In this document: one piece after another, positions 9,096-59,300 of the stretch
How the letters are laid out: each line of letters starts with the position of its first letter
Position numbering within the stretch: position 1 is the stretch's first letter
Source of the DNA: Methanobacteriota archaeon
Lineage (GTDB): Archaea > Thermoplasmatota > Thermoplasmata > SG8-5 > JAGLSY01
DNA length: 64,000 nucleotides
Direction: 5' to 3'
NCBI GenBank assembly: GCA_020696385.1
Contig: JAEHCQ010000006.1
Location: 96,001 to 160,000 of the forward strand
Made by a program: the position numbers and the translations under genes
Notes under the pieces: model-generated
Databases searched by the model: none
Told to the model about the DNA's origin: nothing
What the model saw: only the letters and a program-made list of their open reading frames with translations

Positions 9096-9148
9096 TAGAT
9101 GTGCACCTGACCGCAACCATTATTATATGTAATATAATGCACCACCTC

Positions 9149-11330: not shown

Positions 11331-11390
11331 TAGTAATGATATGAACTTGATATGATATTAATTTATGTTATATGACATAAAATTATCTTA

Positions 11391-12128: not shown

Positions 12129-12290
12129 GTTATTTTCTCCTTATGTTTATTTATCTTATTCGTCTATCCTTATGTTGTCATACATCATAAAATACTGTTC
12201 TCTATAGGCTATATATATTATTGAGAGTAAGTATAGATACGATGGTTTTCTACAAGCTAATGTGACAAGAAAGAGCAAGAGAGGAAACCA

Positions 12291-14282: not shown

Positions 14283-14323
14283 TGAAACGATCTCGCATTT
14301 TCCAGAAGGCAGGTGATAATTAA
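14282..14323 (+). CDS. 13-codon mini-ORF MKRSRIFQKAGDN
   Basis: Has its own SD (GCAGGTGA). ATG overlaps the permease stop (TGATG) and its TAA overlaps the next ATG (TAATG). Confidence 0.4.
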   Translation: MKRSRIFQKAGDN

Positions 14324-15432
14324 TGCCTGAAATACACATCAAGAATCTGAAAAAGGCCTTCGGAGATCTGGTGGCCATCGATGATCTTACCATCGATGTC
14401 AAGGATGGCGAATACCTTACCATACTTGGCCCCACAGGTGCTGGAAAGACCACACTTCTCAGACTTATTGCTGGACTGACCGATCAGACATCTGGTAGCA
14501 TATTTATTGATGGAAAATGCGTTGATGATCTTCCCCCAGAGAGGCGGAAGGTCGCTTTCCTCAGTCAAACCTATTCATTATTCCCACACATGGATGTCTG
14601 GGAAAATACCACTTTCGGCCCCATAGCCAGAGGCTGGAACCCCGAGCAGGTGGAGATAATTGGCCGTGAGATGCTGGAGATGGTTCACCTATACGATAGA
14701 AAGGATGCCTACCCGAGTGAACTGAGTGGTGGGATGCAGCAGAGAAATGCTCTGGCACGTGCTCTTTCTGCGGATGCCAAGATACTGCTCCTTGATGAGC
14801 CCCTCAGGGCTCTAGATGCTCGCCTTAGGCTTGATCTGAGGTATGAGCTGAAGCAATTGTCAAAGGACATGGGCATGACCACCATCCATGTCACCCATGA
14901 TCAGGAAGAGGCTCTGACCATATCCGACAGAATACTTGTGCTTCGTGATGGGAAGGTGATACAATCTGGCACACCAAAGGAGATATTCAATAAGCCAGCT
15001 ATTCCATTCATACATCACTTTGTTGGTGAGGCGAATTTCATAAGTGGCAAGCTGTTAGAAGTGGGTGATGAATACTCGATCATTGTGGATGATGATGGTC
15101 ATAAATATAGGACCCAGAAAACAGATATCAAACCAGGATCGCGTGTGGTGACCGGCATCAAGACCGAATTCACACTTATGACCAAGGATATATGGGAAAG
15201 TGAGGACATAAACAATTTTACTGGCAGTATTGAGAGAATACTTTTCCTTGGTAGATTCTCTGATTTCGAGATCAAATTGGACAATGGAGAGATCGTGCAT
15301 GCCAGGCTTCCAGGATATCAGGCCAATAAGTTCGAGGATGGCGATAAGGTCAATATTCATTATTCACCACAGAGATTACTGGTATTTCCCGAACCAGAAG
15401 GCGGGATAAAGAAAGCACTGGAGATGGTTTGA
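14323..15432 (+). CDS. ABC ATP-binding subunit (PotA/CysA/MalK-like, C-terminal TOBE)
   Basis: GPTGAGKT, LSGGMQQR, LLLDEP, HVTHDQEEA. Confidence 0.95.
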   Translation: MPEIHIKNLKKAFGDLVAIDDLTIDVKDGEYLTILGPTGAGKTTLLRLIAGLTDQTSGSIFIDGKCVDDLPPERRKVAFLSQTYSLFPHMDVWENTTFGPIARGWNPEQVEIIGREMLEMVHLYDRKDAYPSELSGGMQQRNALARALSADAKILLLDEPLRALDARLRLDLRYELKQLSKDMGMTTIHVTHDQEEALTISDRILVLRDGKVIQSGTPKEIFNKPAIPFIHHFVGEANFISGKLLEVGDEYSIIVDDDGHKYRTQKTDIKPGSRVVTGIKTEFTLMTKDIWESEDINNFTGSIERILFLGRFSDFEIKLDNGEIVHARLPGYQANKFEDGDKVNIHYSPQRLLVFPEPEGGIKKALEMV

Positions 15433-28133: not shown

Positions 28134-28757
28134 TCACTCTGTGTGCAATACGGCGAAGGCCATTTTTCCCATGACCTTGGTGACCTTTATCTTGACAATG
28201 GAACCCTTTGCAGTTCCTGGCACATATATTATGAAATCGTCTATTTTGGCGATACCGTCGCCTTTCTTTCCAACATCCTGGATCATGACCTCATAGACAC
28301 TGTTTGCAACAACTGCCTTGACATCCCGTGCTGCCGTGGTGCTCTTTCTCACACCAATTGGTCTTCTTGCTCCGCATGCCTCACATTCAAGAACATCCAC
28401 CCTGCCTTCCTTGACAATGTGGGTATCTGGTCGCTTGCATTCGGTGCATAGAACAAAAGAATTCACATAGGCTTTTAATCTAGTTTCTACCTGTTTTGGT
28501 ATAAGACGGCTCTTGAAAACAGCCCTCTTACCATCCAGAACACCTGGAGTTCCAAGCTCTCTCTGGAAATATGCGAGTAGATCAGTAGGCTTGCGCCTTA
28601 TTGTCTCAGCTATGTCTCCGAAGTTCCTGAAAACAGTTGATTTACCCTCTACGAAAAGATCAACTTCCGGAACTTGGAACCTTTCTTCCTTTGTGATCCC
28701 CTTAGGCAATTTCTCCTTAGCGGATTTCAATAGCTCAGAATAATCGTATTCGGTCAT
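28134..28757 (-). CDS. eif2b: Translation initiation factor aIF-2 beta with C-terminal TRAM domain
   Basis: YSELL, ERFQVP, ELGT, CTECKRPDT..CEACGA zinc ribbon and TRAM (GKKGDGIAKIDDFIIYVPG). Start placed at ATG 28757. Confidence 0.93.
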   Translation of the reverse strand: MTEYDYSELLKSAKEKLPKGITKEERFQVPEVDLFVEGKSTVFRNFGDIAETIRRKPTDLLAYFQRELGTPGVLDGKRAVFKSRLIPKQVETRLKAYVNSFVLCTECKRPDTHIVKEGRVDVLECEACGARRPIGVRKSTTAARDVKAVVANSVYEVMIQDVGKKGDGIAKIDDFIIYVPGTAKGSIVKIKVTKVMGKMAFAVLHTE

Positions 28758-28797
28758 GCAGACCCGATTATTCTGGCATTGAATATATAATATTCGG

Positions 28798-28952
28798 TTG
28801 AAACAACCCGCTGTAGCGGTATGTTTCAATTGTAGGCCATAACCTCGACCTCTCGAAGCTTTATCCAGCTTCGAGTCCAGTTAAAAAAATAATGATGAGG
28901 TTACGGCGGTATAATATGTCCAAACCCGCAGAGAAAATCATACTCTGCGGTT
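28798..28952. other. Cluster of three hairpins downstream of rtcB
   Basis: TTGAAACA..CCGCT/AGCGG..TGTTTCAA; GCCATAACCTC..TCGAAGCT/AGCTTCGA..GAGGTTACGGC; CCGCAGAG/CTCTGCGG. Confidence 0.55.
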
Positions 28953-30785: not shown

Positions 30786-32084
30786 TCAGATAATTTTCTC
30801 CCACTTGAACAGATCGAGGACCTGTGAGAGCGTGCTACCACGTTTTATCTCTTCTCTAACACGATTCTCTCTCTCAAATACATCCAGTGCCCGGTTGGCT
30901 ATCTCGACTGCAACATGCTTTGGAATGACGACAATACCTGTTTCATCACCCACTATCCAGTCGCCAGTTCTTACCTTCTGACCACCACAAACAATGTCAA
31001 TTCCAATCTCGCCATGTCCTTTTGGCTCGCCTGCACATGGTCGTAGATGTCTGGCAAAAGCAGGGAAATCCATATTCTGGATCTCGTCAATGTCTCGAAT
31101 TGCTCCATCAATGACCACTCCTGAAAGCTTTCTCTGTTTACAACTCCATGATGCCAATTCTCCCCAGACAGCTATCTTTCCACTTCCTGCATCGATCACA
31201 AGAACATCGCCTTCATTTGCTCCGTCAATGGCCTCAACTGGCTTTGCCCAATCACCGTCAATGGTCCTGACGGTGAAGGCTCTTCCGATCATCTTTCCAT
31301 TCCTCTTGATATATGGCTTGATGTTGACCATGGCTCCTTCTTTGTGCATGGCATCTGATATGTTAGGCGTGGATACCTTTTCCAGTGCCTCCCTTATGCT
31401 CTCCGCACTGTATTTCTTGAAAAGATCTGTACTGACTGGTATCATCTCATCAATGGCCTTCTGAATGTCTGCAGTTGCCTTTGTTACATCATTCGCTTTG
31501 ATGATCGCTCCTCCGACAATGATGATCGAAGCACCATTGGCGATGGCTGTTGACGCGGTCTCTGAATTTATCCCGCCTGCAACCGCGATAGGTAATTTCG
31601 TGATCTGATAAAGCATCTTGACAAGATCAAATGGTTCTCCGCCAGTCATTTGATGATCAATGCTCGCGTGCACGCAGAGAATGTGCACGCCGAAGCCTTC
31701 CAGCTGTCTAACACGCTCCTCCATATTGTCCACGTTCATCAGGTCCGCCATTACAAGTGAACCGTACTGGCTGGCAGATTTTACAGCTTCCGTGATAGTC
31801 CCGTCATCTGACAATCCCATGATTGCCACGACATCCGCGCCAGAGCGTGTGGCCATCTCGACCTCCACTCCGCCGACATCCATCGTCTTCATATCCGCGA
31901 CGATGGTCTTGTCCGGGAACTCGGCTTTTAATCTTCTAATAATATTCATGCCCTCGCTCTTTATCAGGGGAGTTCCAGCTTCTATCCAATCGGCTCCGCC
32001 TGCAACGGCTTCCCTGGCTATCTGTATCGCGCGATCTCCTTGAATAAGGTCCAGGGCTACCTGGAGCTTGACCTTTGATGTCAT
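30786..32084 (-). CDS. hxlA: 3-hexulose-6-phosphate synthase fused to an RraA/HMG-aldolase-like domain
   Basis: LQVALD, WIEAGTPLIKSEG, ADMKTMD and AVAGGI (HPS). STPNISDAM, AVWGEL, DGAIRD and GDWIVGDETG (RraA). Start at ATG 32084. Confidence 0.93.
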   Translation of the reverse strand: MTSKVKLQVALDLIQGDRAIQIAREAVAGGADWIEAGTPLIKSEGMNIIRRLKAEFPDKTIVADMKTMDVGGVEVEMATRSGADVVAIMGLSDDGTITEAVKSASQYGSLVMADLMNVDNMEERVRQLEGFGVHILCVHASIDHQMTGGEPFDLVKMLYQITKLPIAVAGGINSETASTAIANGASIIIVGGAIIKANDVTKATADIQKAIDEMIPVSTDLFKKYSAESIREALEKVSTPNISDAMHKEGAMVNIKPYIKRNGKMIGRAFTVRTIDGDWAKPVEAIDGANEGDVLVIDAGSGKIAVWGELASWSCKQRKLSGVVIDGAIRDIDEIQNMDFPAFARHLRPCAGEPKGHGEIGIDIVCGGQKVRTGDWIVGDETGIVVIPKHVAVEIANRALDVFERENRVREEIKRGSTLSQVLDLFKWEKII

Positions 32085-32214
32085 TGATAACATGTAGAGA
32101 AGATGAGAGATAAAAGTTTTGCGTAGTATCTCAATAACCAAATTCCTGCATAAACAATATATGAAAGATTGGATATAGCGGCTTCCAGAGACCAATAATA
32201 ACACAGGTGATACA

Positions 32215-34772: not shown

Positions 34773-37700
34773 TTATTCTAGATCGGCTTCCCTCTTATCA
34801 ATAAGCCTTCTTAGCATTTCTTCACTGAATTCTTCATCATCTTCGAATGCCCTTCTCTTCATCCTGTGTGGCAGGGCCATTGAGGCAGCTACGATAATAT
34901 CTTCTGTGGATGTTTCCATTCTACCTTCAAAGGCCGCGTTTGCACGTGCCGCCCTCTCTATTATGATATCCGCTCTGTGGCCATCGACATTGAAGTCCAT
35001 GCACACCTGAGCAATTAGCTTGAACATCCTTTCTGGAGTGGTCACCTTGGATAGAAGTCCATTCGCTCTTTCTATCTTATCGACCAGTTCTTTCCTCGAT
35101 GCCTCGAACTTCTCCCTGAATTTCAATGGTTCCGAGGTGAACTCTTCACGACGTCTCACAATATCTATCCTCTTACCAACATCTTTGATACCGATAACAT
35201 CAGTCTGTAAAGCGATCCTGTCCAATATCTGTGGTCTCAATTCACCTTCTTCAGGGTTCATACTTCCCACGATCAAGAACCTTGATGGATGGCTCAGACT
35301 GATTCCTTCTCTTTCAATAGTGACAATGCCAGAACCTGCTGCATCAAGTAAAATATCAACTATATAATCATCCAGCAGGTTTATCTCATCAACATACAGG
35401 ACACCTCTATGAGCCTCGGCAAGTATGCCCGGCTCGAAGGATTTCACACCTTCTGTAAGAACTTTCTCGATGTCTATACTTCCAACGAGACGATCTTCAG
35501 TAACATTCAATGGCAGATCAACGACCTGGACCTGTCTCGTGTGGACCTTTAAATTACCTGCCTTGTGTCTGGCCGCACATTCTGTACAGAATTTATCTTC
35601 TTCCTTTGGATCGCAATTGAACTTACATCCTGTGACCTCGATATCTGGAAGGATCTCAGATAGCCCTCTGACCGAAACAGATTTTCCGGTTCCTTTCTGT
35701 CCTCTGATTAGAACCCCGCCGATCTCGGGATAAATTGCATTGAGAGTAAGTGCGCTCTTCATCTTTTCCTGGCCAACCATGGCGGTGAATGGGAATAGAA
35801 CACGCTTCTGCTTACCTCTGTCAAGCATCTTGTTTGCAGCCTCTTTAAGCTTCAGCTTGTCTTCCTCATCCATTCTGTGTCTCATCTGACTTTCCAGCTC
35901 AGTTCGGAGATTCATCATCTCCTGCTCTTTCATTCTTAATTTTTCTCTATTGTCATCGAGCAGGTTCTTCTGAATGTCCAGTTCACTTCTTGAATGGATC
36001 AGTTCCTCTTCCTTCATCTTGAGCTTCTCTTCCTCCTCCATCATCATGTCATCCGCACGTTTCTCCAGCTCTGTCTGGATGAGACTTTCCATCTCTTCTT
36101 CCTTCATACGTAGCTTTTCTTCCTCTTCAGCCATGTGCTGGGTCTTGAGCTCCAATTCTGAACGTATGGCAGAGACCTCTTCCTCCTTCATTCGGAGTTT
36201 CTCTTCTTCCATCTGGATCTGGTCTGAAAGTGATTCTAATTCTGTCTTGATCTCATTGATCTCTTCATCCTTGAGGCGTAATTTCTCTTCCTCTTCCTGG
36301 ATCATCTGTTCATAATTTTCTTCCAGCTTCTGCTGTATCTCCTCAATTTCCTCTTCCTTTTCTAGATAAAGTTCAAGCTCATCTCTTGAATTATCTGCAA
36401 GGACATCTGGGTATTTGAAAAAGATCAGGTAGAAATCAAGGATAATTACCATAATAAGAATGATGAGAGTTATCGTTATAAGGATCAAGTCACCTTGAAG
36501 GAATTGGGAGCTATAGGCCACATCCATACCAAGACCAATGGCCATGAGGCTTGATGGGATCAGTGATATTACGAGATTGGCCTTTCGATCCCAGAAATGA
36601 AGTATGGCGGAGCTCATTGATAATAACATGGCGAGAAGTAGGATCGATATGCTTGAGATATTACCAAAGGTCGGAACAAGGCTGAATGATACGGACGGTA
36701 CTCCCGTATCATTAATCATATTGGTCACTATAAGTATGAATTCGACCAGAACGAATATGGCAAGGAATATGTAGAAAAATAATGTTATCAAACTCATATT
36801 GTAATAATTGAAGAAACCGTCCTTCTTCTTTTCTTCATCAAGTATCTCATCGATCTCTTTCTTCTTTTTTCGATCCCTGATCTTTGCCTCTATCTTGTCT
36901 TTTTTCATCTCGGCCTTTGGATCATATTCATCTTCAAGTCCATCAGAGTCGGGATCTGCATCCATATCTTCTGGATCGTCAATGTCGCCAGCTTTCTTTT
37001 TGCCTTTCTTACCCCATCTGGATGCCTTTTTCTCTTTTGCTTTTGTATCTTCTTTTGGTTCTTCATCCACTTCTATTTGATCGTCATCTGGTGTTTCTTC
37101 CACTTCCTCGTCTGAGACTGTTTCATCTTCAACACCGTCCTCTTCAACAACATCTTCAGTGGTCTCTTCTTCGACCTCTTCTTCATCAATAGTATCTGGC
37201 TCAAATGTTGTAAGGTCTGTATAACAATTAGAACATATCTCGGCTGTTTTATCGATGCCCTTTGCACATGATGGGCATCTCTTTGAATGGGTTAGGTCAT
37301 AGTCACAGATCGGGCACTTTTCACTGTCTGTGTTGATAACATCATCACACGATGGACAGAGCATCTGATCATCCTCTATTATGATTTCCTCGATCTCCTC
37401 ATCTGGATCACTGTCCTCTTCTTCTATGATCTCTTCTTCCTCTTCCACAACCTCATCTTCGGTTATGTCCATTTCCTGGCCAGGATCATCATCATCTGTT
37501 TCATCATCCTCATCAACTGTTAAGGACTCATCTGGAGAATCTCCTCCGATCGTTCCAAGATCCCATTCGCCAGAGCTCTCATCTGATTCTTCTGATGCAA
37601 CCTCTTCTTCCTCTGGGTTTTCTTCGATCTCTTCATCTCCAAGATCAAGGTCTAGCTCTTCTATGGTTGAATCTACATCATCATCAAGATCCAGATCACT

Positions 37701-37847
37701 TAGATCAAGGCTGTTAGAATTATCTTGCTCTTCTTCTATGATCTCTTCTTCTTCATCAACAGGCGGCAGGTCAGCTCCACAATTGCTACATTCGGTTGTC
37801 GAATCGTCGTATGTCAGTGCTTGGCACATGAGGCATATTCTATCCAT
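34773..37847 (-). CDS. Membrane-anchored ChlI-type AAA+ ATPase with zinc ribbons, acidic tracts, 4 TM and coiled coil
   Basis: Six CxxC motifs (three ribbons), D/E-rich tracts, four hydrophobic segments, [11 protein letters not shown] repeats and a C-terminal AAA+ with GQKGTGKS and LYVDEINLL. Confidence 0.88.
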
Positions 37848-37863
37848 TTTTAACCTACCATTC

Positions 37864-38544
37864 TTATTTTCCTGTTTCTATCAATTTTGCTAATTTATTA
37901 CTGTTCAATCGCCTGTATACGATAAAGCCAGCTCCGAGCAATGCAGCCATGAATGAGATACCTATTGGCACGTTCACATCCTCGTCGAAATATGGTGGGA
38001 TCTCATAATCTGCCGAGAACGGCCCCTGATAACCACATCTGGCCTCTTTCATATCATAGGCATCGATCTTGATGACATCTCCTGAGAATTGGGTTAATGC
38101 AAAGCTAACATTCAGTCCAATGGGGTCAATTGAATTATCCTCCCACTCGCCTATATGATATGGGAGATACACTGAATTATCTTCATCCAGGTAATTCCCG
38201 GTAGTCTCAACCCAATCAATGACAGCAATTCTTGCATTCAAGTCCGTGTACTGCTTATAGGTTATATTGCAGATCTCATGGCCATTTCCATCCAGAACGA
38301 CCAAAGTTATGTTGTAAATGTCACTCCAGCCATTCAGATCCCTCAATGAGATATGAACCATTATTAGACCATTGTGATCATCCACAAATACATCGACCAT
38401 TGAGGGTGGATCATTGGATACACCAATACCACCGGCCTGAGCATCAACAATGTCTGGCAAATAGACAAAAGCAAGGCTGAACACTAACAACAAACTGAAT
38501 ATTTTTCCAATTGTGATTGGATTCATCCTCCTCCCGTTTGACAT
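37864..38544 (-). CDS. Secreted, C-terminally membrane-anchored hypothetical protein
   Basis: Signal peptide (IFSLLLVFSLAFVYL..VDA), beta-rich acidic domain, C-terminal TM followed by RR. Confidence 0.8.
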   Translation of the reverse strand: MSNGRRMNPITIGKIFSLLLVFSLAFVYLPDIVDAQAGGIGVSNDPPSMVDVFVDDHNGLIMVHISLRDLNGWSDIYNITLVVLDGNGHEICNITYKQYTDLNARIAVIDWVETTGNYLDEDNSVYLPYHIGEWEDNSIDPIGLNVSFALTQFSGDVIKIDAYDMKEARCGYQGPFSADYEIPPYFDEDVNVPIGISFMAALLGAGFIVYRRLNSNKLAKLIETGK

Positions 38545-38619
38545 AGATACCCCTCTGAACATTTAAAATCGGGTTTGTATAACATATACTTTATTATATA
38601 TATTAATTATCCATAGAAC

Positions 38620-40041
38620 TCAAACCCATTTTTTCTTCTTTCGTCGCTTGTAGCCTGAACCTCCTTTTTTCTCGGCTTTCTCTTCTTCTTCCTTTCTTTT
38701 TCTTTCTTTCTCTGATTTGTGACCTTGATATGCCATTATCAGGAATGCCAATACAATTCCTACAATGATCAATGATATTGCCAATATGTTCATTGGGCCA
38801 AGTCCGACATCTTCTTCCTCCTCCAGAAAGGTCTTGGCCTTGACCACAATGGTTGTTGTGAATTGGCCGGAGTTTGCGAAATCATCGGTCTCAGCCATGA
38901 AATTAACGTAGGCCAGCATAGATGGCTGACCTCTTGGTGGGGCAATTGAACAATTAATAGTTACAAGCATATGGGTCTCTGTATCTGAAGATACCTGTGC
39001 ATACACTGGCTGTGTTACTTCAATATCATTTTGAAGTATATTGACAAGGGAGAGTTTATCTACCTCTGTAGATAGATGGCTATCCTTTGTTCCAGTTAAG
39101 TAAAGATCGAGCCCCAGCTCATCATTGTAATCTGCGATCAACCTGCTTTTGTATTGGACCACCAAACCAGACATTTGGAAGATATCATATCCGGGTCTAG
39201 CCACCTTGACGATCACATTGAATGCAGATTCTGGTGCAAGTATGAATGATATCATGGTCGGTGTCACCAACATCTTTGGCTCCCCATGTATCCTACCTTT
39301 TACAGTGAATTCTCTTGGACTCCATTTCTCTGCTCTGAATGCTATATGATGAACTCTCTCCTCACCCAGGTGACTTATGCCAGTGGAGTTGGTAGTTGTG
39401 AATAACTCATCATAATCATCATATGATATATCAAAGTCCATAGGAACGTTGCCTGAGTTCTTTGTTGTGAAATAAGTGGTATTCTGTGGATCATCTTGCA
39501 TGTATGAATCGATCGAATCCGTTTGGAAAGGAGACACATTGAAATAGAAATTCGGACCTGAAAATGCTATGCCAGACACTGGTGCTTCCACTATGAAGGT
39601 CTCATTCCATTCTTGAATTGCCTGGTCATCAACGATTATCGAAAGGATCCATTGTCCTGGCGTGGCGTTCCCAATCATACCAAGATAAAAGCAATATGTA
39701 TTTTCATAGACACTGGACAGGTCGGAATTTATGAAATCAGTGTACAAATGATCAGTCCAGATAGAATTATTGTAGGACCAATGATAGTAATTCGTTATAT
39801 CCGTGTTATTATGTTTTATGGAATAGGCGTACACATCAATAGTATTGGCTGGCGAGTTCAATTCAATGGTCAGATTGTGCAAAACACCCGCAACTGTGAT
39901 ATCCATTCCATCACGCTGTCTTAACACCTCTCCCGATATGCGAAGCTCCACCGAATCGACCAGCTGGGCCTCGGCAAATGTTGGAATAATGGATATTAGA
40001 AATAATAGACTCAATATTATAGCCAAAGGTTTCTTGATCAT
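38620..40041 (-). CDS. Secreted, C-terminally membrane-anchored surface protein
   Basis: MIKK plus hydrophobic segment plus AEA signal, sequon-rich beta ectodomain, C-terminal TM and highly charged tail. Start at ATG 40041 after GGTGA. Confidence 0.82.
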   Translation of the reverse strand: MIKKPLAIILSLLFLISIIPTFAEAQLVDSVELRISGEVLRQRDGMDITVAGVLHNLTIELNSPANTIDVYAYSIKHNNTDITNYYHWSYNNSIWTDHLYTDFINSDLSSVYENTYCFYLGMIGNATPGQWILSIIVDDQAIQEWNETFIVEAPVSGIAFSGPNFYFNVSPFQTDSIDSYMQDDPQNTTYFTTKNSGNVPMDFDISYDDYDELFTTTNSTGISHLGEERVHHIAFRAEKWSPREFTVKGRIHGEPKMLVTPTMISFILAPESAFNVIVKVARPGYDIFQMSGLVVQYKSRLIADYNDELGLDLYLTGTKDSHLSTEVDKLSLVNILQNDIEVTQPVYAQVSSDTETHMLVTINCSIAPPRGQPSMLAYVNFMAETDDFANSGQFTTTIVVKAKTFLEEEEDVGLGPMNILAISLIIVGIVLAFLIMAYQGHKSEKERKRKEEEEKAEKKGGSGYKRRKKKKWV

Positions 40042-40216
40042 CAATTCACCCATTATGCTCAGAGATGCTATATACATATATGCATGGCTAACATAGCTAA
40101 GCAACTTACTCAGATAAAGTTGGTTAAAGTATATATTATTTATGCGCGTGTGTTATATAATATTACGTTTTAGATCACAAGATCCTGCTCATTGTACGCA
40201 TCCCGTAATAATTTGA

Positions 40217-41230
40217 TCATATCAGATACATATCATCATCTATCTTGATGATCGTGGTCTCCTGACCTTCTGAAATATAATCCTGAGGCTTTTTTATCGT
40301 AATTGGCTTAAAAGTCACTGGATCCATGATCTGGATCTCTTTTTCCCCTTCATGAATTATGACTGCTTTGGAGATAGTATAACCTCCCATGTTCACAGTG
40401 AACTTATTGAACTCATCATATCTGATCTTCTTCTTTCCCCAGGTGTTCAGATCTTTTAAGAATGCAAAATTCTTCGATACAGAAGTAACAATATATGTAT
40501 CCTTTTTATCTGACACGATATCATCCTTTCTCATCTTCGGGAGCCTTAACGAGTAAGTATAACGGAATACATCCTTTCCATCATTTTGCCCGAATATTCT
40601 GGATGTCTCTGTGACCTTGCCCCCAAAACGGCTCTGAAGATCCCGCACCTGGGACTTTGATAATCCCGATGAGCCCATGTAATAATCTGTCCCGCCCTTT
40701 ACCTTTGATTCCTTTGTCAGAAAGGCCTGCCTATCTGATTTATTCTCATCAAGACTTTTATTGAGGAATCTGCTGATACCTTCCATATCTGAATCTGATG
40801 GATCTCTTCCATCACCTCTTATCTGGATGATGGCTTCAAAATATCCGCCTCTCTTTCTGCTACATACGTCACAGACCTGTTTCTTTGTTCTCAATTTGAA
40901 GCTCAATGGGATCTCAAGAAATAATTCCTCTATGTTTATCTCAACAGATAATTCGATCTGGAATTCATTCGTTCCCTCTGGGAATTCATCAAAATCTATG
41001 GACGGATCACTCACAAGTTTATCAAATTCCAGATTATTCTCTACTATTGTCTGCATCCCATCGAATGGCCTGACCCAGGACGAGCTTCCGATAAGGTAAT
41101 CTCCACATTCTGGACAAATAATGCGCTTGACATAAGGGGGAACCTTCACAAGCTCCCTGTCATCTATAAGGCATTTCTCGCAAAGATTTCCGTATGTTCT
41201 TTCATCAGAACCACATTTTATGCAATACAT
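40217..41230 (-). CDS. nmd3: NMD3-family ribosome biogenesis protein
   Basis: CIKCG..LCEKC, CPECG, CDVCSRKRGGYFEAIIQIR, GGTDYY and IQIMDP. Confidence 0.9.
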   Translation of the reverse strand: MYCIKCGSDERTYGNLCEKCLIDDRELVKVPPYVKRIICPECGDYLIGSSSWVRPFDGMQTIVENNLEFDKLVSDPSIDFDEFPEGTNEFQIELSVEINIEELFLEIPLSFKLRTKKQVCDVCSRKRGGYFEAIIQIRGDGRDPSDSDMEGISRFLNKSLDENKSDRQAFLTKESKVKGGTDYYMGSSGLSKSQVRDLQSRFGGKVTETSRIFGQNDGKDVFRYTYSLRLPKMRKDDIVSDKKDTYIVTSVSKNFAFLKDLNTWGKKKIRYDEFNKFTVNMGGYTISKAVIIHEGEKEIQIMDPVTFKPITIKKPQDYISEGQETTIIKIDDDMYLI

Positions 41231-50020: not shown

Positions 50021-53000
50021 TTACCAGTTGACTGTCCAGGTTCCGCCTACTGCGACATAGACCCAGTACGCTTCGCCACGCTGGAGGACATAATTGTCCG
50101 CCAGGGTCACGATATCGTATGGTCCAGCACCGTAGCCTTCAACCATGGATGCACCAGTTGCCAGCTTCAGATCACCTACATCGTAGGTTGAATCATCCTG
50201 TGCAGGGTAACCGACAAGATTCCAACCGGAGCTCAGAGTAATATCTGTGCTTGTTGGCTCATATCCGTCTCCAACAGACAGGAGTGCTCCTGCTGTTGTG
50301 AGTTTCACCCACATACCCATTGCGTTACTAACGCTTGGCATGTCCTGTGTGATTCCTGCTGCTGCCTGTGCTTTGTCATAGGTCTTCCAGTGGTCGACTT
50401 CAATTGGGTTGTACCAAGTGATGATCTCCCATGTGGTGTCACCATTGCCCCAGTTCGCATCATCGAGAACTGTTAGAACATCGCCGGATGCAGTTATTGG
50501 GAAGGATACGAATATCCAGTCTCCTGCTCCTGCTCCACCAGTGTCTATATCATATGGCACTGCTGGTGCTCCGCCTGGTTCCTGCACTTCATTGGTGTTT
50601 GTGTCCTCATTGGATGATGTATCAACTGCTCTAACAACATACCACCAAAGTGTGGCGTCTGCCTGGCCTCTACCCATGTCCACATAGCTTGTTGTTCCAT
50701 ATGGAACAGAACCTATTAAGGACCATGGGCCGCCTGGGTTTGCGTCACCAGATCTGTAGATGTTGTAAGACATGGTGTCTGGAGATACCGAGTCAGTCCA
50801 GCTGATTGTATTGTGGTCTGCAGGGTTTCCAGCAATAGACCAGCTGAAGCCGGCTATGTTGGAGTTTGCTGCTGCTGATCCCCAATCCAAGTGACTGCCA
50901 CCCTGACCTCCACCGGATACCGTACAATCATAGCTGACGGTCCACTGGGATGCATCAAGCTGTGTAGCTCCAAGAACTTCTGTTGTGAAGGTTGCTCTGA
51001 GTGTTCCTGGTGGGTTGGTTGCTGCTGCATATAGTTCAACAACTATTGAGTCGCCTGCATCTAATATGGTTAGAGGTGGTGTCCATGTTCCAGAGTGTAA
51101 TCCGGTAGTGGTGCCACCGCCGACAGCCGATACTGCTGTTGTCAGTTGTGTCTGTACACCGGCGCTGTTCCTCTGGTACACCCTTATTCCACCGTACACT
51201 GGCTGCCAGTTTCCGAGGGAAGGTGTCTCAATTGTTGTAGATGACTGGGTAGTTCCAAGTGAGTAGGCTGTCAATGAATTGACAGTTACTTCATTGGCCA
51301 CACCTCTGAAGAACCTCTGTTCTGTTGTCATGGAACCTGCTGGCCCATCCTGTACAACTGTAAGTCCGGTCACCGGTGTTGGTGGTGTGGTGTCAACAGT
51401 TGTGAAGGTCCAGGTAACCGATTGTGTTGATCCTGTTCCATCAGTTGCTATTGCATACCAGTTGTATACGGTTGCTGAGGTCAGTCCTATTGCACCTGTT
51501 GTGGCTGTGGCACCGCTTGCAACTCCATTCACTGTTGCGAATGGGGTTCCGCTGTCCCAGTAGAACACAACATCCATCGAATCTGATTCATAATCTGAAA
51601 CATCTACGCTGAATGCCTTGCTTACTGCTACATCAAGCTCACCATCGAATGGGTCTGGGTTCATAGGTTCGTATGGACGTCTTGGTGAATCAATGAAGAT
51701 CTGAGTCTCTGCCCAGGCTCCCCAGTTGTTTGCTGCATCCATTCCTTGTACCCAAATCTTGTGCCATCCACCAGCCCAGCCAGTAGTGTCTATTGAGGTA
51801 GTACTCTCAACAGCCTCTGCTGGTGAGTTGAATGAACCATCCATTGTGTCCATGCCAACTGGTGTTGGGTTCACATCGGTCTTGTACTGAGCATCTGCGA
51901 CATTGCTACCGCCAGTTGTCCATTCGTGTACATTACCTACGACTACGACAGTGTCACCTGGAATACAGAGAACCTTGTCTGTTGAGACATATTCTGTAAT
52001 TGGTCCAACGGTGTCCGTTGCTGATTCCCAGCCATTGTAAACATGCATGGCTATGATATCATGACCGCCTTCCTTGGTGAACTGGTTCTGTGCTATCAAC
52101 ACTGTGTTGGAGTTCTCCCATGATGCAGATCGCTGCTTGCCCTTGACAAAACTGTCTAGAGTCAAGTACTGTATCTTTGTAGCTGCTCCACCTGTGTAAT
52201 CGTCGTCATAGAACATCAGCATGTTGGTCTGACCGTATGGGTCGTACCTTATGTTTCTGTGCATGAACACGTAGATGTAGTCATCTGCTGTGTAATCCAA
52301 GTCCAGAAGGAACCTTGTTCCATAATCGTGGTCACTTGCTACAGGTCCGTATGGTCCGTATCCAGCATTTCCATTGTTCTCAAAGCTGACACCATTATCA
52401 TCGGAGTACATAACAACGACACTTCGGTCGCCATCTGTGTTCGCACCCTTGAGGTAAGCTCCATACTGCCTGTTATTGGAGGCACCCTGGTTTGCTGCTA
52501 CACCCTGTGGGAACATCATGTTATCTGGTGAATCCAGAGCCATTCTTACTGCGCTCCATGATCCATCGTAGTACTGGAATGTTGCATCCCTGTCCTGTGC
52601 TGCATCTCCACTGTCTCTCTCATAATACCAGAGAGCTATGTTACCTGCAAGGTCTGTGTATGCATGCGGGAAGAAATAGAACATACTCGCGACACCTGGA
52701 TCGATCTGCGTGAATGCAGACCAGGTAGCTCCTCCATCTGAGGATGACTTTCCAGTAGTAGATATCGATACCTGTGTAGCTGTCATCAGATCAGTACCTG
52801 AATATCCAAAGTCCTCTACAACAAGGTAGAATTGTTCTCCGTTTGGATACCATACTATGTTGACAGTTCTGTAAGTATCCCTGCCGCCACCTTCAACTCC
52901 TTCACCAAGTGCGTATGCATCTGATTCAGTCCATGATGTGTATGGGAAATCTGCATAATTCACCTTGATGTAAGAACATCTTGTATCGGCTGTACTACCA

Positions 53001-55999
53001 CCATATCCATCGGGATTCCATGCATTGTACGCTATTGCTATCCTGCCTGCATTAGGTCCATTTGAAGCCCTTGCTATTCCTAAATAGCCTGGTGTCCATG
53101 AATCCTGAGATATTGGTATTGGGGTACTCCATGTAAGACCACCATCGCTGGATAATGTGAAGTATGCCTTGTCACCGAAGTTCTCATCCTGCCTGTAGGT
53201 ACATGCAACATAATCATTACCGCCTGATTCCCAGGAGGTAAATGCTGGTGCGTCCTCGTGCACTGGCGCGTCAGCTATCTTCCACTGTGTGGGTGTCTTC
53301 TCTGTGACCACATCCACTTGGAAAGCTATAGTTGACTGTGCGATAGGTGCGGATGCATCATTGTTGGATGTTGCAGTTAGTGTAACAGTGTATGTTCCAG
53401 CTGCGACTGCTCCGACATTGATCCTTGCATATCCGTGTACCCTCTCATTGACTCCTACTGAAAGACCAGATGCTGGGAAGTAAGCTGCTGTGAAACCACC
53501 TGGGACAGATGATGTGATCGTGTAAGAATCTGCTGTTGATCCACCATTGTTAATCCAGTATGGCACAATTACGCTACCACTTGGAGCACACTTGAACACT
53601 CCTTCTCCGTATCCATCTGTTTCAGGAACCACTCTTGGTGTGTCCAGGTTCATGCTTACCTTGTAAACATTGTCTCCTGCGTTCACATCAGAAGCTGTGT
53701 TCATTCCACCAGTCATAGCAATTGACCATGGGAATGCTGCGCCAGCCTTTAGGATGATATCTATGTCCCATGTTCCTACCCTTGGCTCAGCGATGGTAAA
53801 GACCTCTACGTTGTTTATATCGTCACCGCCGTCATCGGCTGTGTCGAAGTCGTAGCTTGCCCCGCCCATCCAGGTTGGATAAGCTGCATTTGACCAGTCA
53901 CCGGCAGTTGGTACAGGGGTGGACTTTCCTTCTTTGAAAGCATTTCCTTCATACCTTGTTCCATCTGGAGCGGTAACAACCAGGTCATAGTCTGTTGACA
54001 ATGCACCTGCGGAAGTTGTGTCCCAGTGTGAGAAGGTGATCTTCAATGGTACGCTCTCATCTGTAACGACCATGTCGAATCCCATTGTTGAGTCATCTGT
54101 TGTACCTGTTGTTCCACTGGAGTGGTACCACTGCAATGTGTTTGGTGCAGGTGGACAGATCGAGTTCCTCACATTGACACGTCCCCATCCCTGATCGTTG
54201 CTTGGGTATCCGTGTCCCATGTCAACGGCTCCGTGGATAAGGAGAGTCTTCAAAAGGTTACCGTGTGGTGTGATGCCAACGACATCCACCAGGTAGTCCC
54301 TTATAAGGGCTGTGTCACCAGCTGCTGCTGGGCAAGCCATTGAGGTTCCCTGAAGTGAAGCGTAGTCACCTATGCCATCACCGTCTTCATCCATGATCGT
54401 TATCAGATCATACAAACCTGGAAGTTCGGCTTCTGCTGTGTCATCAGATTTGACAGAGTAAACAGCTGTTCCGGACTCGACAATATCTGGTTTGATCCTG
54501 TCATCGCCTGGACCTGCTGGACCTCTGCTACTGAAACTGGCCATCTGGCCGTAGTTATCAGATGAATCGAAGTCGATAGCACGCATGTTCTCTGCTGCAC
54601 CCACTGAAACTGCAAGTTTACCGTTTCCGGATCCGCTTGCTGTCAATGTCCTTGGACCGTCGTTTCCGGCGGCGAACAGAACAATGGAGTTTGCATTTGA
54701 TTCCATGAAGTTGTCTGCTGTCTGGTCATATCCTGAAGACATAGTAGCTGGTCCCCAACTGTTGGTGAAGATCCTTGCACCAAATGTATAACCTGATGAC
54801 CACTCTGTGCTGACCAAGCCAGCTCTGAAGTAGATTGTTGCCTCTGGAGCCCTACCTGCAAATCCTGCCCTGTCTGGGCGGCCTGCGGGGTTGGTTGCGG
54901 CTAACTCATTGTAAAGCCTGTCTGTAGAGCTTAGACCGAGGTATTCCTCCATCATTCCACCGTCTCCAGCAACTGTACCTGTAACGTGAGTTCCATGGTA
55001 CTCTGCATCGGATGTTGAATCTGGGTTCTCAAGCCTGTCGCCTAATGGACCCTGGATGAAATCCGCATGAGTTGAGTCTATTCCAGAATCCTGGACGTGG
55101 ACGATCTGACCCTGACCTGCTATGTCCTGTGGTAGATTGGATATGTCACGGTCCCACAGATCCCATGCCTGAGATATTCTTCCTCCTACGTTGTTAAGGA
55201 GTTTCATCTCTGGCAGGTACCATACCTGATCGACAGATTCCAGTTGTGCAACATCGGCTATCAATGAAGCGTCAACTGTACACAGTACATCACCATAGTT
55301 GGTGTCTGTAACGTCCCATGCACCGAGGCTGCTCAGTTCATTCATGATCTGTGCGGCACTAATGCCTGGGAATGGGTTGATGGTCATCTGGATAGTTCCG
55401 ACCTTTCCATTGAGTTTTGCATCTACTTTGAATGCTGGCTCGTATGGTCCGACCCACTGAACATAGTCCAGATTCTCTACATTGGCCTTCTCGGCAGAGT
55501 TCATCTTGGCGACGACTGCATTGTCGTTGATGTATCTCCTGATACCGCCTGTGTTGGACTCTATTCCATCAAACCAGACCTGATTGCCTGGTGTGACGAA
55601 CTGTACGATGTAGTTCTGTGTTCCAGTGTTCTGGAATCTTGCTGGAACATTGTATCCAGTCTCTGTGTTGAAACTGATATCCTGTTCCAGGAATTTCATC
55701 TGTGTCCTTTCCTGAAGGTCCACGACGCTCATTCTGTTTGAGAGTGCTCCTCTCTGGGAATTTGTTACTTTAACATAGGCTCCCCATTCGTTCAAGCTCA
55801 CTATTTCGGTTCCACTGTCCTGTAATTCTCTGGCTTGTTCTGGTGTATCAAAAGTCACCAGGACAAAATCTGTGGATTCTACTGCATCGACCGAATTATC
55901 GCCAAGATTTGACGCTAATATCGACCAAGACATAGAGACCATAGAGATTACAACAATCATAGAAACCACTGTTGATAATTTCTTGTTTTCATTGCCCAA
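50021..55999 (-). CDS. Large secreted S8 subtilase with Asp-box repeats, Ig/FN3-like domains and a C-terminal GWNLVGYP repeat domain
   Basis: Signal peptide and prodomain, VQDSGID, HGTHVTG, AAGNDG, SSRGP, KPD and GTSMACP all intact. SxDGGxTW repeats. TTG start after GGAGG. Confidence 0.93.
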   Translation of the reverse strand: MGNENKKLSTVVSMIVVISMVSMSWSILASNLGDNSVDAVESTDFVLVTFDTPEQARELQDSGTEIVSLNEWGAYVKVTNSQRGALSNRMSVVDLQERTQMKFLEQDISFNTETGYNVPARFQNTGTQNYIVQFVTPGNQVWFDGIESNTGGIRRYINDNAVVAKMNSAEKANVENLDYVQWVGPYEPAFKVDAKLNGKVGTIQMTINPFPGISAAQIMNELSSLGAWDVTDTNYGDVLCTVDASLIADVAQLESVDQVWYLPEMKLLNNVGGRISQAWDLWDRDISNLPQDIAGQGQIVHVQDSGIDSTHADFIQGPLGDRLENPDSTSDAEYHGTHVTGTVAGDGGMMEEYLGLSSTDRLYNELAATNPAGRPDRAGFAGRAPEATIYFRAGLVSTEWSSGYTFGARIFTNSWGPATMSSGYDQTADNFMESNANSIVLFAAGNDGPRTLTASGSGNGKLAVSVGAAENMRAIDFDSSDNYGQMASFSSRGPAGPGDDRIKPDIVESGTAVYSVKSDDTAEAELPGLYDLITIMDEDGDGIGDYASLQGTSMACPAAAGDTALIRDYLVDVVGITPHGNLLKTLLIHGAVDMGHGYPSNDQGWGRVNVRNSICPPAPNTLQWYHSSGTTGTTDDSTMGFDMVVTDESVPLKITFSHWDTTSAGALSTDYDLVVTAPDGTRYEGNAFKEGKSTPVPTAGDWSNAAYPTWMGGASYDFDTADDGGDDINNVEVFTIAEPRVGTWDIDIILKAGAAFPWSIAMTGGMNTASDVNAGDNVYKVSMNLDTPRVVPETDGYGEGVFKCAPSGSVIVPYWINNGGSTADSYTITSSVPGGFTAAYFPASGLSVGVNERVHGYARINVGAVAAGTYTVTLTATSNNDASAPIAQSTIAFQVDVVTEKTPTQWKIADAPVHEDAPAFTSWESGGNDYVACTYRQDENFGDKAYFTLSSDGGLTWSTPIPISQDSWTPGYLGIARASNGPNAGRIAIAYNAWNPDGYGGSTADTRCSYIKVNYADFPYTSWTESDAYALGEGVEGGGRDTYRTVNIVWYPNGEQFYLVVEDFGYSGTDLMTATQVSISTTGKSSSDGGATWSAFTQIDPGVASMFYFFPHAYTDLAGNIALWYYERDSGDAAQDRDATFQYYDGSWSAVRMALDSPDNMMFPQGVAANQGASNNRQYGAYLKGANTDGDRSVVVMYSDDNGVSFENNGNAGYGPYGPVASDHDYGTRFLLDLDYTADDYIYVFMHRNIRYDPYGQTNMLMFYDDDYTGGAATKIQYLTLDSFVKGKQRSASWENSNTVLIAQNQFTKEGGHDIIAMHVYNGWESATDTVGPITEYVSTDKVLCIPGDTVVVVGNVHEWTTGGSNVADAQYKTDVNPTPVGMDTMDGSFNSPAEAVESTTSIDTTGWAGGWHKIWVQGMDAANNWGAWAETQIFIDSPRRPYEPMNPDPFDGELDVAVSKAFSVDVSDYESDSMDVVFYWDSGTPFATVNGVASGATATTGAIGLTSATVYNWYAIATDGTGSTQSVTWTFTTVDTTPPTPVTGLTVVQDGPAGSMTTEQRFFRGVANEVTVNSLTAYSLGTTQSSTTIETPSLGNWQPVYGGIRVYQRNSAGVQTQLTTAVSAVGGGTTTGLHSGTWTPPLTILDAGDSIVVELYAAATNPPGTLRATFTTEVLGATQLDASQWTVSYDCTVSGGGQGGSHLDWGSAAANSNIAGFSWSIAGNPADHNTISWTDSVSPDTMSYNIYRSGDANPGGPWSLIGSVPYGTTSYVDMGRGQADATLWWYVVRAVDTSSNEDTNTNEVQEPGGAPAVPYDIDTGGAGAGDWIFVSFPITASGDVLTVLDDANWGNGDTTWEIITWYNPIEVDHWKTYDKAQAAAGITQDMPSVSNAMGMWVKLTTAGALLSVGDGYEPTSTDITLSSGWNLVGYPAQDDSTYDVGDLKLATGASMVEGYGAGPYDIVTLADNYVLQRGEAYWVYVAVGGTWTVNW

Positions 56000-56333: not shown

Positions 56334-59300
56334 ATGCCAGTTGATAAGACAGTTAAGACAATAAGTTTACTGTTAGTTATGGCTCTTGTGCTAGGTCCAT
56401 TGGGCGGCGTAAGTGTCAAAGAAAGCTATAATGGAGTTTTAAACCCATCTACCCCAGATTCAGGTGATATTACAGATGCACCCGACATCTTAAATAAGGA
56501 TATTGCAGGCAAGAATCTGCCCAATACCCAAGCATCTTCGAAGCGTACGAACTTTGGAGATCTTACTGAGATGAATGGTGTGTATTCCACCAGTGGGATC
56601 AAGCCATCCCAGGCAGCCTGGGGTAATTGGAGTTACAGAGATGCCCATAATGTTCCAATGGTTGCGAACATGGGCTATGAGGGTGCAGGTGTATCTGTGG
56701 CTCTCGTTGATACCGGAATTGATTTCGGTAATATCAATCTGGCAGACAAGTACATGACCGTGGATGACCCCACGTCACCGTATTATGGCTGGCCAATGGC
56801 ATTTGATCCTTTGGCATTGTCATCTTACTTACAAGCTAAAGAGGTCCGAGTAGGGAATGGATGGTACGCAAATACATCCATAAATGGAACTGGTCCATTT
56901 GATGTTAACCATGAAATAAAGGTTGATGGAAAGAATGATTTCTCCCAAACAGAATTGGTTGGTAAGGACAGATATTCAGATGTCAGAGTTAATGGAACTT
57001 CTACGAAAGCAGAGTTCGATCTGAATGAATTATTCATTACAAGAGATGATACATATTGGTATGGTGGTGTCAATACTCGATATGCTGAAATGAACAGAAC
57101 TTTTGGATTTGCCCTTGACTTTGATGGGGCTGCGAGTGGTGGATTGACCGATCCTCGTGGTAATTACCTCCATTTCAAAGCATCACATTCTGCACCTGTC
57201 GAACAAGTAGCATACAGTCCAGATAATAACCTCATTGCCTCCTGTGCTGCATCTGGTACTACTGATGCGCCAACATCATCTTACAGCGTAAATTCTGTAA
57301 AGATCTGGGGTGTAGATGGTAGCCTCATTGAGACTCTACCAAGTGAGGTGAGCAATGTCTTCACAATAGCATGGTCTTCGGATGGTAGCTATTTGGCATA
57401 TCAGACATTGAAAGAGGTTATTGTCTATGAAACATCTGGCTGGACAGAAGTGTGGAGAGTGGAAACCATATCCGAATCAGACGGATATAGAGAATCCATG
57501 ACCTTCAGTCCTGATAACTCGATATTATACTTCGGAATGAAGCTACCAAGATTAGGTTTCTTGTTCATGAACAATGGGACTCACATGGCTAAAAGCATAG
57601 GTGGAAAGGCTTTTTCATTGGCTTTCAATCCGATATCTGGAGATAAGATCGCCGTCGGTCTTGGGGATGGATACGCAAAGATTCTTGATAGCACCTTCCC
57701 ATACTCTGAGATATTACAATTCAAAGACCCTATCTTAAGCAGTAATATTGAAACTGTCGCATGGAGCCCAGATGAGACCAAGATCATCACTGGCATAGGC
57801 AGCTTAGGTACAAGTATCATGCAGATATGGGATGCAAGTACTGGGGCTTGGATAGCCAATATTACCGGTGGGCATGACCCCGACTCAACTGTAAATACAA
57901 TAAAATGGCTAAGCACAGGTGAGATCATCACAGGAGCAGATGATGGTAATATGATTGTATGGGATGATACTACTTATAGCATTATTGACACAAAGGTTAG
58001 TATAAATAATGAACCAATATACTCTTTTGATATCAATGACGTCACTGGTGAATATTTCCTAGGTACAGCGGACTGTCTTGTTACAAAATTCAGCAGTGAT
58101 TGGGGTACAACAACGCCATTTGCAGCCCAGAGACCTGATGTCATGATATATATTGATTATGAGAGAGAATACTATACCTTCGGAGCCGATGGGCAGAAGT
58201 TGACGACCCGCGATCAGATATTCAATCCTGATGTTTATAAATGGGATGAATCTTCCTCCTCATGGGAATCCACCAACCTTTCTGCAATTGGAGGAGAATA
58301 CATTTACAAAGGATCTTTGGCAGGAGAGTTCACAGAGGTTGGCTTTGTCGAATGGAGCATACCAAGGAACTACAGTGATTGGCCAGGATCAAATGACCTG
58401 TATGTCAGTTCATTTATCTGTGATTGGGAACCATCCCGACCACAGGATACTATCCCAATGGATTGTAATGTCCCGTCACCTCCAACTTCTGTTTGGGTGG
58501 ATTTCACAAATACTGAGCCCGTAGGTATCAGTGCATGGGGACATTCATACATTCCTAAGACAACTGTCGATCACGCTAAAGTTACTAGTGTGAGCCCAGA
58601 TGATACTTATCACTTTGGATACCACCCAAGTAAGTCACTTACAAAAATGCTGGGTCCTGTATCTATCCTGGTTGTAGAATCAACAACATTAGGAGAATGG
58701 GATCAGGTATACATTGATATGAATACAGATTATATAATTGATGACAACGACATTGTTGTCGATATCAATAATCCTCTGGCAGTATGGGATGCCTGGAATG
58801 GCAGCCAGCCTGGTTCAGATGGATACCCTGACATATCTGGTGGTCTTCTTTACTTTATTGCAAATGGAACCAATAAATTACCGTATTCTGACAGAATGGG
58901 AGAGCTATTAGAGCTCACATGGAATGAAGACAGCCCAATGCCGATACCAGGTAATGGAGAACTTGTCGCTTTCTATGGTGAATTCGATTATGATGATCTA
59001 AATGGAGAAATAGTAACACATGGAACACAGATGGCGTCAGTTATCGCATCTGAAGGAGTAATCAATGGACAGAATGGACCTATCGAGGGTGTAAGCCCAG
59101 ATATCAAATTCCTTCCAATGTGTAATGCCCAGTATGATCTTGAGAATTCCCTGTACTTTGCAGTAGAGGGATATGATGGTATACCAAACACTGGTGATGA
59201 AGCAAACATAGTATCAACGGGCCAGTATTCATCTGGCTATGACAATGGTTTGGATTCAACTTCAAGTGTTATTGAATCACTTGTAAACTATACCAACTCA

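Follow-up and report, generated by a model that had tools for sequence, protein, structure and literature searches.

The window analysed here is a stretch of 64,000 nucleotides (nt) from a Methanobacteriota archaeon (GTDB lineage Thermoplasmatota; Thermoplasmata; SG8-5; JAGLSY01), positions 96,001 to 160,000 of contig JAEHCQ010000006.1 in assembly GCA_020696385.1. It encodes a protein of 1024 amino acids (aa), P0001, in which zinc ribbons, acidic tracts, a four-helix membrane domain and a helical stalk are joined to a ChlI-type AAA+ module, and which is referred to below as the fusion. ChlI-type motors are known as components of tetrapyrrole metal chelatases. The fusion gene is the third of a four-gene operon, all on one strand, in which the genes are separated by gaps of 57 nt (P3/P2), 16 nt (P2/fusion) and 4 nt (fusion/P4):

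38620..40053, minus strand: P3, operon gene 1; signal peptide, three tandem immunoglobulin (Ig)-like beta-sandwich domains, C-terminal membrane helix, basic cytoplasmic tail
37864..38562, minus strand: P2, operon gene 2; signal peptide, one Ig-like beta-sandwich, C-terminal membrane helix, conserved cytoplasmic tail RR..NKLAR
34773..37847, minus strand: fusion protein P0001, operon gene 3; single ATG-started open reading frame of 1024 aa
33689..34768, minus strand: P4 (P0004), operon gene 4; soluble 359-aa ChlI paralog, starting 4 nt past the fusion stop

The open reading frame finder begins P3 at a TTG at 40104; the ATG at 40053 (MGELMIKK...) gives the better fit to a signal peptide. A preliminary description, made from the nucleotide sequence and a list of its open reading frames, had listed the features of the 1024-aa protein without stating that the gene lies on the minus strand. 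Each of these features could be located in the sequence:

37758..37847, minus strand: N-terminal zinc ribbon, residues 1-30, with Cys 5, 8, 20 and 23
37368..37757, minus strand: acidic tract 1, residues 31-160, 54% Asp plus Glu
37212..37367, minus strand: double zinc ribbon, residues 161-212, with CxxC pairs at 164, 178, 191 and 205 (CPSC, CPIC, CPSC, CSNC)
37062..37211, minus strand: acidic tract 2, residues 213-262, 56% Asp plus Glu
36813..37061, minus strand: Lys-rich segment directly N-terminal to the membrane part, residues 263-345, 27% Lys
36393..36812, minus strand: four-helix membrane domain, residues 346-485, with four hydrophobic segments
35820..36392, minus strand: helical stalk, residues 486-676, with six repeats of 28-30 residues that share a common motif
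34776..35819, minus strand: ChlI-type AAA+ module and lid, residues 677-1024, with Walker A GQKGTGKS and Walker B VDE
35628-35678 (residues 741-757): Cys4 cluster in a loop of the AAA+ module, C741, C745, C754 and C757

Pfam and NCBIfam identify only the AAA+ module of the fusion (Mg_chelatase, 51 bits against a cut-off of 20.3; AAA_lid_2, 58.7 bits against 22.7) and weak zinc ribbons, the double ribbon matching the Pfam families DZR and Zn_ribbon_3, both below cut-off. The N-terminal arm as a whole has a net charge of -109. The four hydrophobic segments span residues ~348-478 (nt 36414-36806), in agreement with the four transmembrane segments previously placed at about 36415-36810. Lysine and arginine residues are found in the N-terminal flank, the 417-424 loop and the C-terminal flank of the membrane domain, and are absent from the loops at 373-394 and 445-452. 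Both ends of the fusion are therefore predicted by the positive-inside rule to be cytoplasmic, as had been proposed. The stalk contains 191 residues without proline or glycine, and 28% of them are glutamate. Its hydrophobic residues show a significant 7-residue period (reached by 19 of 2000 shuffles). At the 3.5-residue harmonic that marks a classic coiled coil, the signal does not reach significance (327 of 2000 shuffles). The segment is therefore treated as a helical stalk for which a coiled coil, as listed in the preliminary description, is plausible or even probable but not proven.

In a word-indexed search of 5.8 billion proteins, 49 cluster representatives other than the query, 627-1101 aa long, matched over 58-100% of the fusion. 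Where the source is named, these are proteins from metagenome-assembled genomes of Thermoplasmata/Thermoplasmatota, annotated just as 'ATP-binding protein' or 'Mg-chelatase subunit ChlI'. Whole genomes were searched with a single protein sequence, the membrane-plus-stalk part of the fusion (residues 340-680). Of 22 genomes of the order, 18 contained a match to this part, among them 7 of 7 high-quality genomes, and the four without one are 59-77% complete; the fusion gene is a near-universal core gene of its order. In a sample of the class, 39 of 401 genomes contained a match, and in 31 of the 401 the match was strong (E <= 6e-47) and lay in an open frame of 549-1114 aa. Orthologous fused frames from many independent assemblies carry no internal stops, which refutes an assembly chimera; no point in favour of a chimera or a fused pseudogene was found, and either is practically out of the question. 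That the fusion is one open reading frame is confirmed from these orthologs, not from reads.

The relatives P0005-P0054 share a constant core of four-helix membrane domain, stalk and AAA+ module. Between the last membrane helix and the beginning of the AAA+ module lie 170-217 residues in 48 of the 50, and the stalk repeat motif is conserved. The N-terminal arm differs among them in the number of its zinc ribbons and in its acidity: the CxxC pair at about 5 and 20, corresponding to the N-terminal zinc ribbon, is present in 31 of 50, and the whole arm, acidic tracts included, is missing from the forms of 627-669 aa. The architecture is a conserved lineage trait and not a one-off, and the N-terminal ribbons and acidic tracts are its variable part. 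The statement that no characterised ChlI-family protein has such a layout holds for Pfam, NCBIfam, the PDB and the literature searched; full-text searches, with subscription journals and supplements outside their scope, gave no description of the fusion architecture or of the module. The earlier interpretation of the layout is supported in this form, and the more telling features lie outside the fusion coordinates, namely the operon of four genes and a membrane domain whose cytoplasmic head can be exchanged.

The gene order P3-P2-fusion-P4 is kept in loci L001, L003, L005 and L007 (L004 ends inside the fusion) and, in more distant families, in L057, L058, L059, L061, L062 and L063 (L060 is cut); start and stop codons overlap within the cassette in L057 and L059. 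In L064 the fusion is preceded by a 462-aa protein (9035-10423) whose C-terminal half is P2-like. A separate P3-like gene was not detected in L064, and no P4 (standalone ChlI) follows the fusion there.

An AlphaFold2 model of P3 was obtained with a pLDDT of 85.0. Foldseek matched it to tandem Ig arrays (Hydin, integrin alpha legs and titin) with TM-scores of just ~0.2, and a sequence-profile search of the PDB gave only a weak match to Hydin (E 0.0019). Pfam Ig-like families were found below threshold in 6 of 17 P3 members, and the nearest ESM Atlas clusters, at 0.86, carry Ig-like families, which is a lead only. The structure model of P2 has a pLDDT of 77.4, and fold searches gave generic Ig-like matches only (best Z 9.2). 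P2's own ESM Atlas cluster is annotated 'hypothetical protein', and the PDB sequence-profile search returned no match for P2 or for the membrane domain. P2 was also considered as a pilin, since it has archaellin matches (E about 1e-3, TM-score 0.3-0.4), which amount to a helix plus a beta-sandwich; this was rejected because P2 has an ordinary signal-peptide cleavage site (VDA/Q). A defence system was likewise rejected: no PADLOC-DB family was found for P0001, P0002 or P0003, and the gene is part of the near-universal core of the order. P0004 gave only a weak AAA+ match to the RtcR model of PADLOC-DB (E 5e-5).

The standalone P4 and residues 677-1022 of the fusion share 59% identity. A tree built from 40 AAA+ modules groups the standalone copies in a single clade (SH-like approximate likelihood ratio test, SH-aLRT, 100) and 12 of 13 fused copies in a second (SH-aLRT 99), with the thirteenth unresolved beside them. 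The two clades nest together among Thermoplasmatota ChlI proteins with zinc ribbons, and the branching inside one mirrors that inside the other, which indicates that the fused and standalone motors arose by one old duplication and then co-diverged. The Asp-Glu of Walker B is kept in 13 of 13 fused copies. It is replaced by Asp-Gln in 3 of 11 standalone copies (L058:4971-6038, L059:9142-10182 and L062:9353-10402), whose fused partners keep Asp-Glu. An Asp-Glu to Asp-Gln change in Walker B classically stops hydrolysis, not binding. The substitution suggests that the Asp-Gln form of the standalone ChlI would be a hydrolysis-dead regulatory subunit. As judged from the sequences, the Walker B pattern is as expected of a hetero-oligomer with one regulatory partner, and recalls ChlI with ChlD. 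The Cys4 cluster (CxxxC-x8/9-CxxC) in the AAA+ loop is present in all Thermoplasmatota and Asgard-type copies examined, P4 included; it has no counterpart in three bacterial outgroups, and 8osf has no cysteine in that loop. It is possibly a structural zinc site.

Relatives in the PDB were found for the AAA+ part of the fusion only. Residues 680-1003 align end to end with the cyanobacterial ChlI 8osf (E 2e-99), and the complete AAA+ core and lid seen by Pfam, NCBIfam and this alignment bear out the ChlI-type ATPase of the preliminary description. The fusion resembles ChlI/BchI (8osf, 6l8d, 1g8p) in its Walker A, Walker B, SMNPEEG segment and lid. ChlI, however, is a soluble protein of ~350 aa with ChlD and ChlH as partners, whereas the module of the fusion sits behind 676 extra residues. 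The soluble, ~350-aa, single-module form is that of P4 and not of the fusion, with its 1024 aa and four membrane segments. Against TIGR02030, the ChlI equivalog, the fusion scores 396.4 bits and P4 405.2 bits, both short of the cut-off of 466.95. The best NCBIfam match of the fusion is TIGR02442 (458 bits over model positions 1-328, below the cut-off of 779), and it scores 241.8 bits against TIGR02031 (ChlD/BchD; cut-off 499.55). Searches for CobN/ChlH (PF02514) gave no match in the genome analysed here (94.5% complete) or in any of 22 genomes of the order, with control genomes positive in both; a classical chelatase is therefore unlikely. By sequence, the AAA+ part is a ChlI relative that departs from a chelatase ChlI on three counts: it scores below the equivalog cut-off, no ChlH/CobN partner was found for it, and it does not come in the soluble form.

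A decorated AAA+ paralog paired with a plain ChlI paralog is also the arrangement of ChlD/BchD and of the archaeal 'putative cobaltochelatase'. In ChlD the extra parts are C-terminal and end in a vWA domain, whereas in the fusion they are N-terminal, include a membrane domain and contain no vWA. An acidic linker is known from ChlD. No VWA family was detected by Pfam in any of the four operon proteins. A second ChlI-family pair lies on the same contig, ~62 kb from the cassette (C47:65101-68956), and consists of a 921-aa protein with an N-terminal vWA followed by a ChlI-like AAA+, the reverse of the ChlD order, and of a 365-aa ChlI-like protein. A like vWA-AAA+ pair (946 and 307 aa) is found in L064 at 11282-15032, 2 kb from the cassette, and L058 has a ChlI-like pair (322 and 310 aa) near its cassette.

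The family of the four-helix membrane domain was defined as a profile from alignment A3, which comprises 14 of these same sequences and includes motor-less forms. P392, L403, H417, S428 and D471 are invariant in the 14 fused and unfused members; from the predicted topology, H417, S428 and D471 would lie near the cytoplasmic face. Among 1.84 billion representatives the profile matched just 109 proteins (E <= 1e-3), of which 7 are ChlI fusions already found by the whole-protein search. The cytoplasmic heads of 72 of the remaining relatives were scanned against Pfam. A C-terminal PAS domain was found in 30 of them, DUF4332, HHH_5 or TfoX_C in 5, TPR in 4, zinc ribbons only in 4, and nothing known in 29. 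Of 19 loci from another Thermoplasmatota family, 18 have P3-like and P2-like genes immediately ahead of the PAS form. Among motor-less forms elsewhere, L066 keeps P3 and P2 upstream, and L065 keeps P3 only. Since P3 and P2 are kept upstream of forms without the motor, P3, P2 and the four-helix protein are a conserved trio in which the membrane domain is the constant element, or hub, and the cytoplasmic head can be swapped.

In 8 of the 19 loci of that other family (L025-L043), and also in L055 (10654-12491), the PAS cassette adjoins one or two genes of the archaellin family (PF01917). The product of one archaellin-family gene beside a PAS cassette has an N-terminal extension of ~80 residues ahead of the hydrophobic helix. 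No archaellin was found in the present genome, so that a link to the archaellum is not required for function.

In loci outside the order of the window, between one and four genes lie beside the cassette that encode secreted proteins sharing a C-terminal domain of ~200 residues with an end motif like W-x-V-x-I-P-x5-G-x-Y-x3-I-x-Y-x-I, here called family 5. Wherever a locus outside the order includes upstream DNA, such genes adjoin the cassette (9 of 9 loci). The present genome has 13 family-5 paralogs, all on another contig, of which 12 form a tandem array of genes for proteins of 736-1783 aa each:

C11:424994-466573: family-5 array, 12 genes
C11:356263-358461: 13th family-5 copy

A gene for a LonB protease follows the array on contig C11. 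Family 5 was found in 52 of the 401 genomes of the class sample. It is present in 35 of the 39 cassette-positive genomes (not found in 4) and in 17 of the 362 cassette-negative genomes (not found in 345), and neither the cassette nor family 5 occurs outside one common set of GTDB families. This co-occurrence is a strong lead, in which related genomes are not independent and the cassette was detected with a single protein as query. No Pfam family above cut-off was found for family 5, or for P2, P3 or the membrane domain. Homology of the family-5 C-terminal domain to P2 or P3 was considered and rejected (hhalign probability 0.2-0.3%).

Our tentative proposal, to which we give a little less than an even chance, is that the fusion is not a metal chelatase but the motor subunit, embedded in the membrane, of a cell-envelope complex of four proteins in a Thermoplasmatota lineage, and that this complex, driven by ATP from the inside outwards, holds or organises family 5. 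In the cytoplasm the fused AAA+ modules and P4 would form a ring, either mixed or in two tiers, after the manner of ChlI and ChlD, and each fused subunit would be tied by its ~190-residue helical stalk to a four-helix membrane domain. This domain would associate with the membrane anchors of the single-pass Ig-domain proteins P2 and P3. ATP-driven movements of the ring would then be relayed along the stalks into the membrane domain and from there switch the P2 and P3 ectodomains to another state, as inside-out mechanotransmission, and these ectodomains would hold or organise the multi-copy secreted family 5. The zinc-ribbon and acidic N-terminal arm may serve as a lineage-variable regulatory or recruiting appendage. 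The results show which domains the fusion has and that they are conserved, that its gene stands in an operon, that the two ATPases have co-diverged, that the cytoplasmic head is exchanged among relatives, and that family 5 accompanies the cassette both in genome position and in its spread among genomes. The constant length and conserved repeat motif of the stalk also favour the proposal, as do the negative search for CobN/ChlH in the order and the lack of a vWA protein in the operon. From these we infer the binding between the proteins, the direction of action and the biological role.

An analogy for such workings is offered by MacB/FtsEX, which are mechanotransmission ATPases, and by integrins: in both a cytoplasmic input of energy or of a signal alters extracytoplasmic domains, and P3 looks like a leg built of Ig-like domains, with one membrane helix and a short tail. 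The analogy concerns workings and not membership, as there is no sequence or family relationship and the TM-scores are ~0.2. A broader and more doubtful idea is that the complex of P3, P2 and the four-helix protein belongs to an undescribed archaeal surface system that holds, sorts or organises family 5, with an exchangeable head, and that a ChlI ring on six stalks transmits ATP hydrolysis outwards.

Several observations weigh against the envelope-motor proposal. Contact between any two of these proteins is part of the proposal itself, and with outer loops of only about 22 and 8 residues the membrane domain has limited scope to touch the ectodomains directly. A predicted complex of the membrane domain with P3 (30-477) and P2 (42-232) scored 0.60, versus 0.63 for a control in which chain 2 was replaced, and speaks neither for nor against binding. 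A charge pairing of the acidic arm of the fusion with the basic tail of P3 was also considered, and rejected when no consistent relation was found over 15 loci. The folds of P2 and P3 are just generic Ig-like, and the 3.5-residue harmonic of the stalk falls short of significance. Family 5 adjoins the cassette in 0 of 8 loci of the window's own order, 4 cassette-positive genomes are without family 5, and 17 genomes have family 5 but no detected cassette. The PAS, TPR and HhH heads would fit a receptor or scaffold equally well, and the closeness of the AAA+ module to genuine ChlI (E 2e-99) could point to metal insertion with an unrecognised partner.

In a rival explanation, that of an outside-in receptor, P2 and P3 would sense the exterior, the four-helix domain would relay the signal inwards and the head would be the output, with the motor pair remodelling a cytoplasmic target. 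Exchangeable heads that are mostly binding or sensor modules, Ig-like ectodomains of the kind found in many receptors, and the archaellin genes beside the module in 8 of 19 loci are all consistent with this. The PAS heads, however, have no further output domain and so look like inputs, the operon contains no conserved gene for a cytoplasmic target, this genome has no archaellin, and the link to family 5 points outward; we regard a receptor as unlikely. A membrane-tethered machine for metal insertion, comparable to ChlI/ChlD, CobST or MoxR-vWA, seems less probable again. It would act on a protein of the membrane or surface, or else on a tetrapyrrole-binding partner that has escaped recognition, with cations handled by the acidic tracts and by the membrane domain's invariant His, Asp and Ser residues. 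The close ChlI relationship of the AAA+ module, the invariance of H417, S428 and D471, the strong acidity of the tracts, and the vWA-AAA+ protein with its own ChlI-like partner elsewhere in the genome, a like pair of which stands beside the cassette in L064, would agree with such a machine. Nevertheless, CobN/ChlH was found in none of the 22 order genomes and a vWA protein is missing from the operon, the membrane domain is joined with the same invariant residues to heads that are not ATPases, and the acidic tracts are missing from the 627-669-aa forms. NorQD (PMC13036017) and CoxD (PMC3471820) are MoxR-vWA metal-insertion systems, and CoxD is described as a membrane protein. These systems likewise use related AAA+ motors for remodelling or metal loading, but with vWA partners, which the operon here lacks, and with a different AAA+ subfamily.

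The fusion might also act as a membrane-anchored unfoldase or translocase on cytoplasmic substrates, with the membrane part serving for localisation only and with parallels in FtsH/LonB for proteins or in FtsK for nucleic acids. FtsH and archaeal LonB are membrane-anchored AAA+ machines, and like the fusion they tether a ring ATPase at the cytoplasmic face of the membrane by helices of their own. They differ in having a protease domain and in belonging to other AAA+ clades, and the fusion has a long stalk between ring and membrane; no peptidase family was found in it by Pfam, and it scores just 24.6 bits against TIGR00764 (LonB; cut-off 516.6). FtsK/SpoIIIE consist of four N-terminal membrane helices, a linker and a hexameric RecA-fold DNA motor, which is in gross layout the order of four helices, long linker and C-terminal ring motor seen here. 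FtsK is, however, a DNA pump with a RecA fold, whereas the motor of the fusion is a ChlI-type AAA+ and no link to DNA was found in the operon. This shared layout, the related soluble Thermoplasmatota ChlI proteins P0060-P0067, which carry many zinc ribbons and in some cases HHH_5, and a distant PDB match to the DNA helicase ComM speak for an unfoldase or translocase. The fusion has neither a protease nor a nuclease domain, its AAA+ is far nearer to ChlI (E 2e-99) than to ComM (E 3e-5), and the strict coupling to P3 and P2, motor-less forms included, is unexplained by mere localisation; we consider this the least probable of the three functional rivals.

A near-canonical ChlI is thus kept in duplicate across an order of sediment-type Thermoplasmatota in which no CobN/ChlH was found, and it is tied to membrane and surface proteins. 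Should it work as an envelope motor, the range of tasks of the ChlI motor clade would be wider, the four-helix domain with two Ig-like single-pass proteins would be a new membrane module, and there would be a handle on how surfaces are built or controlled in uncultured archaea with many giant secreted proteins. With a surface system of the broader kind, a ChlI-clade motor would for the first time have a task other than that of a chelatase, and archaea would have an inside-out control resembling that of integrins.

Upstream of the operon lie genes for NMD3, DUF424 and MCM, and downstream a convergent gene for Cys-tRNA ligase. One further feature precedes P3:

40105..40216, minus strand: AT-rich intergenic stretch 5' of P3, with TATA-like runs (G+C content 0.34 at 40000-40499)

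By inference, this stretch is likely to be the promoter region of the operon. A scan with the bacterial sigma-70 consensus, which is not applicable to an archaeon, gave 23 promoter-like sites versus a shuffle mean of 17.2 (standard deviation 3.8), and a bacterial terminator scan, equally inapplicable, gave 7 terminator-like sites versus a shuffle mean of 4.6; both counts are near what shuffling gives.

Elsewhere in the window, a 1992-aa open reading frame on the minus strand (50021-55999) contains a subtilase (Peptidase_S8) domain. Its companion on the plus strand (56334-63998), which runs off the window at >2555 aa, adds WD40-like, beta-helix and NosD repeats. The two giant frames are large secreted proteases typical of protein-degrading sediment archaea. 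A 231-aa protein (28134-28829, minus strand) combines an eIF-5/eIF-2B (aIF2-beta) domain with a C-terminal TRAM domain, and in a 472-aa protein (30786-32204, minus strand) an OMPdecase/HUMPS-family domain is fused to an RraA-like aldolase domain.

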